IMG/VR virus record: IMGVR_UViG_2698536348_000004 | Strand: one strand, 5' to 3' | Length of the DNA stretch: 12,440 bases | DNA from: a virus | Lineage: Duplodnaviria > Heunggongvirae > Uroviricota > Caudoviricetes | Shown here: positions 7,183-8,117 of the stretch, in pieces | Layout of the letters: every line of letters starts with the position of its first letter | How positions within the stretch are numbered: the stretch's first letter is position 1 | Notes under the pieces: generated by a model | The model's input: only the letters and a program-made list of their open reading frames with translations | What the model was told of the DNA's origin: nothing | The model's database searches: none | Translations under genes and position numbers: made by a program

Positions 7183-8117
7183 AAATCCACCCCGTAAATC
7201 CAGTCAGTGTTTGTCAGGTCGAGTTTTGGTTTTCCAGCTGTCACGCCAGCCTGTTGCTTGTTACGGTTGATTTCGAGTTGGGTCCACTTGTCGCGGAGTT
7301 TGGCCGGACTTAGCACGTTACCGGACCAGAAGTTGTCCTGGCATGCCCAGCGGAACAGCACGCACATGTCGCGGTGGTTACGTCCGTCACGTTCACGCAT
7401 CAGGCGGATATCGTTAGCCCACCCTGCAAAATTCGGTTTTCTGGCTGATGGTGCGATGGTCTTCACCATGTCAAACATCCACTCTGCGGCGGTCAGGTCT
7501 TCTGCTGTTCCCCACTTGCTGCCGCTCTGAATTGCAGCATCCGGTTTAACCACAGAAAGATCGTTTTCTGGCTGGTCAGAGGATTCGCCAGAATTCTCGG
7601 ACGAATAATCTTTTCTTTTTTCTTTTGTAATAGTGTCTTTTGTGTCCCCCTGTTTTGAGGGATAGCAATCCCCTAATTTGAGGGATGTTTTATCCCTCGT
7701 TTTAGGGGATTTTCCCTCGTTTTGAGGGATGTCCCTCATTTTAGGGGAACCTCCCTCGTTTTGAGGGATGCACCATTCTGAGATGTTTTTATTTGGTCCA
7801 AACATGCCGCCTTGCTGCTTGATAATATTCATTCTGACGAGTTCTAACTTGGCTTCATTGCACCGTTTGACAGGTAACTTTGTAATCTCGCTAAGTTGAG
7901 AATCGGTGATTCTGTCCATTGGTTTATTCCACCCATAGGTTTTACGCAGAATGGCAAGCAGCACTTTAAACTGTCGCTTGGTCAGATCTGCGCCTGAATA
8001 AGCCTCAATCAGCATATTTGATAGTCTGGCGTAACCATCATCGAGATCTGCCACATTACGCTCCTGTTCGGCAAAGTTACCTCTGCCGAAGTTGAGTATT
8101 TTTGCTGTATTTGTCAT
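7179..8117 (-). CDS. O: Replication initiator O (contains the origin)
   Basis: 312 aa; lambda O-like N- and C-terminal domains; central repeated IPQNEG peptide segments encoded by the iteron array. Confidence 0.95.
   Translation of the reverse strand: MTNTAKILNFGRGNFAEQERNVADLDDGYARLSNMLIEAYSGADLTKRQFKVLLAILRKTYGWNKPMDRITDSQLSEITKLPVKRCNEAKLELVRMNIIKQQGGMFGPNKNISEWCIPQNEGGSPKMRDIPQNEGKSPKTRDKTSLKLGDCYPSKQGDTKDTITKEKRKDYSSENSGESSDQPENDLSVVKPDAAIQSGSKWGTAEDLTAAEWMFDMVKTIAPSARKPNFAGWANDIRLMRERDGRNHRDMCVLFRWACQDNFWSGNVLSPAKLRDKWTQLEINRNKQQAGVTAGKPKLDLTNTDWIYGVDL
7590..7644. other. AT-rich DNA-unwinding region of the origin, adjacent to the iterons
   Basis: Plus strand tcttttcttttttcttttgtaatagtgtcttttgtgt, strongly T-rich, immediately downstream (in O gene orientation) of the iteron array, as in lambda. 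Confidence 0.55.
7645..7768. repeat. Replication origin iterons: six 17-18 bp dyad repeats of the TCCCTC-N5-6-GAGGGA type inside O
   Basis: Copies at about 7645-7662, 7669-7685, 7692-7709, 7712-7729, 7732-7748 and 7752-7768; matches the lambda O-binding iteron ATCCCTCAAAACGAGGGA. Confidence 0.85.

Follow-up and report, generated by a model that had tools for sequence, protein, structure and literature searches.

The question raised by this locus is whether a lambda-type replication origin has been enlarged here from four iterons to six and, if so, how the additional pair arose and what it contributes to replication. The sequence analysed was the whole of a 12,440-nucleotide stretch of viral DNA (IMG/VR record IMGVR_UViG_2698536348_000004, Caudoviricetes; hereafter 'the window'), for which an initial annotation had proposed that an origin with six iterons, rather than lambda's four, lies inside gene O. 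When the entire window was scanned with the pattern TCCCYNNNNNNNRGGGA, allowing at most one mismatch, seven matches were found; the mean for shuffled sequences was 0.58, and not one of 200 shuffles reached seven. Six of these matches, which represent iterons of the form TCCCY-N7-RGGGA, were packed into 123 bp (7646–7768), and all six fell within the open reading frame at 7179–8117 on the minus strand, i.e., inside gene O. Read in the sense of O (minus strand), the start-to-start spacings between successive iterons were 20, 19, 20, 24 and 23. The annotation of phage lambda (NC_001416) contains four iterons, and the contrast of six with four was thus borne out by the scan, by the lambda annotation and by an alignment of the two sequences.

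The six iterons, all on the minus strand, are named here 1, 1', 1'', 2, 3* and 4, as in Kozlowska et al. 2020 (PMC7466680), who also report the 13 additional residues of the O protein. The most distal, iteron 1 (TCCCTCAAAACGAGGGA, 7752–7768), is an additional site absent from lambda, corresponds to the feature 'ori iteron 1' in the 933W record (AF125520) and agrees with lambda iteron 1 at every one of the 17 core positions. The second additional site, iteron 1' (TCCCCTAAAATGAGGGA, 7732–7748), corresponds to 'ori iteron 2' in AF125520 and is the same as iteron 2 except for one base at the centre. The remaining four have direct counterparts in lambda: iteron 1'' (TCCCTCAAAACGAGGGA, 7713–7729) is the equivalent of lambda iteron 1, iterons 2 (TCCCCTAAAACGAGGGA, 7693–7709) and 4 (TCCCTCAAAACAGGGGG, 7646–7662) are the same as those of lambda, and iteron 3* (TCCCTCAAATTAGGGGA, 7669–7685) departs from lambda iteron 3 by one base, having A for G. 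Identity to iteron 1 was 17/17 and 14/17 for the two additional iterons, against 13/17 and 14/17 for the canonical iterons 3 and 4. Similarly, palindromic pairing was 6/8 and 5/8 for the additional pair, where iteron 3 had 6/8 and iteron 4 had 3/8; both additional iterons paired at least as well as iterons 2 and 4, and iteron 1' was one pair below iteron 3. By sequence, none of the six iterons is degenerate. Directly downstream of iteron 4 lies an A+T-rich tract (7590–7645, minus strand), presumed to be the unwinding region, in which A+T content was 71% overall and 74% over 7600–7645, as against 53% for the whole O gene. The range originally assigned to the origin, 7590–7768, comprises precisely the iterons and this adjoining tract. 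A search of the whole window with Rfam, at gathering thresholds, produced no match.

The genes around the array are those of the early rightward operon of a lambdoid prophage, i.e., cro, cII, O, P and ren, which occupy the minus strand of the window. Gene O itself (7179–8117), recognised from its open reading frame and by Pfam, encodes a replication initiator of 312 aa and contains the origin. Its residues 22–115 matched Phage_rep_O (PF04492; E = 1.1e-35, 122 bits against a cut-off of 28.7), while the C-terminal part matched DnaD-like replisome organisers of distant phages; a search of PDB sequences with O found no solved relative. The stop codon of O is overlapped by gene P (6481–7182, minus strand), which encodes the helicase loader and matched Phage_lambda_P (PF06992; E = 9.5e-62, 208 bits), and ren (6194–6484, minus strand) lies beyond it. 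The same operon also includes, upstream of O, cII (8150–8446, minus strand; Phage_CII, E = 1.1e-31), which agrees with the 933W annotation, and cro (8585–8812, minus strand), while the repressor gene cI (8891–9598) is on the plus strand. A consensus scan identified a pR-like promoter, TTGCAA-16-CATAAT (8844–8871, minus strand), which coincides with the pR annotated in 933W; this would drive cro-cII-O-P, and hence transcription across the origin. The proposed location of the origin inside O is upheld by the two Pfam assignments, to Phage_rep_O and Phage_lambda_P, and by the identity of O to its 933W counterpart. Two other elements were observed in this neighbourhood. One was an oop-like antisense unit (8092–8207, plus strand), which faces the 3' end of cII as its counterparts do in lambda and P22, with a promoter-like element, TTGAGT-17-CATAAT with TG, at 8092–8120, and a strong hairpin followed by a T run at 8174–8201. 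Downstream of cI, the plus strand at 9659–11569 encodes a DUF3024 protein, a 153-aa open reading frame without a family match and stk (348 aa), a eukaryote-like Ser/Thr kinase; this is the lysogen-expressed cassette of 933W.

Alignment of the O gene with that of lambda showed that the two differ in length solely by an exact, in-frame insertion of 39 bp in the window (7730–7768, minus strand), comprising iterons 1 and 1' and 13 codons. Outside these 39 bp, the lambda origin (ori-lambda, NC_001416 39034–39160) differed by only two bases, one in the iteron array (the A for G in iteron 3) and one in the A+T tract (7599). The lambda origin therefore shares the identical iterons 1'', 2 and 4, the proximal spacings of 20/24/23, a position inside O and a P gene downstream; it is without the 39-bp unit, and hence has four iterons and an O protein of 299 aa. 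At the protein level, 296 of 299 aligned residues were identical (95% over the full length), with a gap of 13 aa and three substitutions relative to lambda, G17E, L37I and S282G, where lambda has G17, L37 and S282.

The source of the insertion is indicated by its neighbour. The 39-bp unit was identical at 34 of 39 positions to the next 39 bp (7691–7729), which contain iterons 1'' and 2; Tandem Repeats Finder recovered a period of 39 with 2.0 copies and 89% matches, and identical 22-bp direct repeats, at iterons 1 and 1'', flank the unit. Given this identity and the 39-bp period, the additional iterons are, on sequence comparison, a diverged tandem duplicate of the unit formed by iteron 1 and iteron 2. 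The reading frame was kept because 39 is 13 times 3, and since the origin lies within the coding sequence of the linker, the same event that added two iterons would also have added 13 residues to O. These residues, at approximately positions 122–134, constitute a second IPQNEG-x-SPK-x-RD unit, such that IPQNEG occurs twice in the passage CIPQNEGGSPKMRDIPQNEGKSPKTRD. They fall beyond the N-terminal domain assigned by Pfam, whose last residue is 115, and before the C-terminal domain, which starts near residue 206; the intervening segment (116–205) is 80% polar or charged and holds the entire insert. Each of the statements that had been made about the protein, i.e., a longer linker between its two domains, a length of 312 aa and a doubled IPQNEG peptide, proved correct when the gene was translated and aligned. 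A single-sequence AlphaFold2 model of O placed no secondary structure at residues 106–204, but confidence was low (mean pLDDT = 42.7), and the model supports a disordered linker only weakly.

Comparison with lambda and with Stx phages had been suggested as a check on the proposal; lambda gave the exact 39-bp insertion, and the Stx phage 933W gave no difference in O at all. Over its 939 nt, the O gene was 100% identical to that of 933W and of some 26 further phage records, most of them from Stx-converting phages. The closest known origins and O genes are those of 933W (AF125520 / NC_000924), P27, Stx2 phage I, VT1-Sakai, BP-4795 and related phages, and 933W shares the six iterons in the same positions, the 13 extra residues and the substitutions G17E, L37I and S282G. 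In AF125520 there are six misc_binding features, labelled 'ori iteron 1' to 'ori iteron 6', and these map exactly onto the six sites in the window; the base change in iteron 3* and the three substitutions likewise match those listed for 933W in PMC7466680. Thus, a six-iteron origin was already known, having been annotated in 1999 in the 933W record and characterised biochemically by 2020, and on this identity the window contains a standard origin of the 933W type. The Wegrzyn laboratory has reportedly been studying the Stx-phage origin since 2009. The first description of the six-iteron anatomy is credited in PMC7466680 to Nejman et al. 2009.

The resemblance to 933W extends across a block of the window (6128–12333) that was 99.45% identical and contains ren, P, O, cII, cro, cI, the DUF3024 gene and stk. 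Outside this block the relationship is mosaic; the nin region matches in part, and the late-regulation end differs, with Q (1608–2231, minus strand) being of the 207-aa Antiterm type. Between Q and the esterase gene the window, in contrast to 933W, has neither tRNA genes nor stx genes; it has instead a 252-aa open reading frame (612–1370, minus strand) that belongs to phrog_1521, with no Pfam match, and then a SASA/NanS-p-type esterase gene starting near position 60. A scan of the window found no stx gene after Q, and ARAGORN found no tRNA or tmRNA. An Stx-converting phage carries stx downstream of Q and the window does not, which is a property of the host phage rather than of the origin. The closest complete genome was that of an E. 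coli from human stool, in which both this six-iteron O and the arrangement without stx recur. The window is therefore an stx-negative prophage with the immunity and replication module of 933W and, given that no stx gene occupies the usual place, the six-iteron form of the origin is found beyond Stx phages. Among RefSeq complete E. coli genomes and phage records, none matched over 79% of the window at any single locus; hence, the window is a mosaic combination of modules that is unrepresented in those collections.

With a probability of roughly 95%, therefore, the locus may be read as a lambda-type theta-replication origin embedded in O, in the six-iteron form typified by 933W and P27. The sequence features of a lambda-type O/P replicon were all found: iterons inside the initiator gene, an adjoining A+T tract, a Phage_rep_O initiator with a C-terminal P-binding domain, and P downstream. 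The features that distinguish the 933W/P27 variant were found also, in the alignment to lambda, the coincidence with the iteron coordinates of AF125520, the substitutions in O and the change in iteron 3*. Functional statements about the window are made through its identity to 933W, and the mechanism that follows is drawn from what is established for lambda and from publications on 933W, whose sequence here is the same. Dimers of O would bind the iterons, which are imperfect palindromes of 17–19 bp, through the N-terminal domain; once in place, these dimers would form an O-some, putting strain on the A+T-rich tract alongside; the P-DnaB complex would be recruited through the C-terminal domain of O; and transcription from pR across the origin would activate initiation. 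The four iterons beside the A+T tract would be the main sites of O binding. The two distal iterons are most plausibly auxiliary sites of low occupancy, which would raise the local concentration of O or stabilise the O-some of a Stx-type O with lower affinity, while the 13-residue extension of the linker may loosen the packing of the O-some.

The distinction between main and auxiliary sites is based on the biochemistry in PMC7466680, where EMSA and DMS footprinting were done with the O protein of 933W and a six-iteron template cloned from P27, and plasmids were derivatives of P27. There, the O proteins of 933W and P27 were dimers that bound iterons more weakly than lambda O, which had stronger iteron binding and formed a more compact O-some than the Stx-type protein. 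Taken one at a time, all six iterons bound O; with the complete six-iteron template, however, DMS footprints showed strong protection only of the four iterons beside the A+T tract, with iteron 1' protected weakly and the distal iteron 1 barely. The initial annotation had allowed that two of the six repeats might be too degenerate to bind O. This is contradicted by the alignment, in which both are intact, and by the binding of single iterons, yet something of it survives in that the two distal iterons are weakly bound on the complete origin; the biochemistry in that paper sets the two extra sites apart from the other four.

The low occupancy of the distal pair is also evidence for an effect at the level of the protein, whereby the 13 linker residues alter how O dimers are spaced or packed in the O-some, or the geometry with which P-DnaB is recruited, and the DNA repeats are a by-product with little role in binding. 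The authors of PMC7466680 themselves suggest that the 13 residues form a spatial barrier that makes the O-some less compact, and the insert does lie wholly within the polar segment between the domains. Set against this, the extra iterons are each competent to bind O individually, and mutation of iteron 1, iteron 1' or both in P27-derived plasmids, such that the mutant iterons were unable to bind O, abolished transformation (PMC7466680). The plasmid result is weakened by the position of the iterons inside the reading frame of O, as mutations there may also change the protein. On balance, a purely protein-level effect is considered unlikely.

The auxiliary-site reading must also be weighed against the possibility that the additional pair does nothing adaptive for replication, being an in-frame expansion within a disordered linker that arose by slippage and spread with a successful phage module. 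The identical 22-bp repeats at either side of the unit are ideally suited to slippage or unequal exchange. One contig, L043 (IMGVR_UViG_2675903606_000002, 1501–2397), had a gap of exactly 39 bp and otherwise no mismatches to the window (7153–8390), making it a four-iteron version of a 933W-type O gene, as represented by this one IMG/VR contig; conversely, L040 and L041 carried six iterons on a lambda-like SNP background. These three loci suggest that the 39-bp unit has been lost or moved between lineages, and L043 suggests that the extra iteron pair is dispensable. Deletion between the identical copies of iteron 1 and iteron 1'', a short patch of gene conversion or a collapse in assembly would each explain L043. 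Since the 933W and lambda types have no distinguishing SNP in the interval from nt 124 to nt 443 of O, a short conversion tract would be indistinguishable from a deletion in this contig, and L043 was for this reason rejected as proof of recurrent deletion. Lambda, too, tolerates the loss of an iteron, growing normally with three (Moore et al. 1981, as cited in PMC7466680).

Conservation of the array argues in the opposite direction. Among the best 80 IMG/VR loci, 41 had six iterons, 38 had four and one had three matches to the pattern; the six-iteron arrays all had the same spacing, and 35 of 41 were identical to the window at all six cores. Of 5426 complete E. coli genomes, 357 contained the six-iteron junction, detected with a 50-nt probe that only this junction can seed, and in 350 of these the identity was at least 99%; lambda-type O genes of nearly full length were present in 1313 of the same 5426. 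Furthermore, differences from lambda in dependence on DnaA, on DksA and on transcriptional activation have been published, and the failure of plasmids with mutated iterons bears against neutrality as it does against the protein-level effect. A neutral product of slippage is accordingly regarded as improbable, and more so than an effect exerted through the protein.

A third possibility, that the repeats have nothing to do with an origin and are instead a chance repeat in coding sequence or a transcription-termination structure, merits almost no credence, because the one feature in its favour, a weak terminator-like hairpin with a T run flagged at 7693–7708 by the consensus scan, runs antisense to O and is no more than one of the palindromic iterons, because the cluster is far above chance in shuffled sequence, and because by alignment the locus is the lambda origin plus one duplicated unit, annotated as the O-binding origin in both lambda and 933W, the identity to these experimentally defined origins being sufficient to refute it.

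The further claim, that iteron copy number varies among lambdoid origins, held up in a small survey, which gave four in P22 and 2851, five in PhiR30_1 and at least six in a prophage of Pantoea stewartii. P22 (gene 18), phage 2851, ES18, PhiR30_1 and HK225 share the general design, in which iterons are arrayed midway along the initiator gene and an A-rich tract comes after them, but have different iteron sequences and N-terminal domains, giving another origin specificity. In P22 and 2851 the 20/24/23 spacing of the four iterons is kept and their sequences differ; PhiR30_1 has repeats of the form TTACC-N7-GGTAA (L125 647–764); ES18 has at least three iterons by the lambda-type pattern. The prophage of P. 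stewartii ATCC 8199 has lambda-like TCCCTC...GGGGA repeats (L123 1317–1461) and its own duplicated unit, of 57 bp. Lambda-type O genes were also observed in GTDB genomes of unrelated bacteria, including Shewanella, Pseudomonas, relatives of Bacillus, Bradyrhizobium, Helicobacter and Mycobacterium. At these loci (L083–L098 and others), O had 93–95% protein identity to that of the window, which is lambda's own level, and the four cores were those of lambda; they occurred on contigs that were either about 48.5 kb or tiny and of low coverage (e.g., Shewanella canadensis NODE_20; 48,542 bp, coverage 0.96). These matches, mostly four-iteron copies identical to lambda, are almost certainly contamination with lambda DNA, and were set aside as uninformative on natural distribution.

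It is proposed, as a tentative reading of the contigs L043, L040 and L041 and one less likely than not, that iteron number may be unstable and reversible, the 39-bp unit being lost, and perhaps regained, through slippage or unequal exchange. If this is true, natural populations would switch between six- and four-iteron origins and, in the same step, between initiators of 312 and 299 aa, which would have consequences for the dependence of replication on host factors and, through it, for how Stx-type prophages behave on induction. L043, as a natural version of the gene with only the 39 bp missing, would be useful for testing the role of the extra iterons. High output of Shiga toxin after induction needs replication of Stx-type prophage DNA, and it is for this reason that the difference between this origin and that of lambda is of practical interest.
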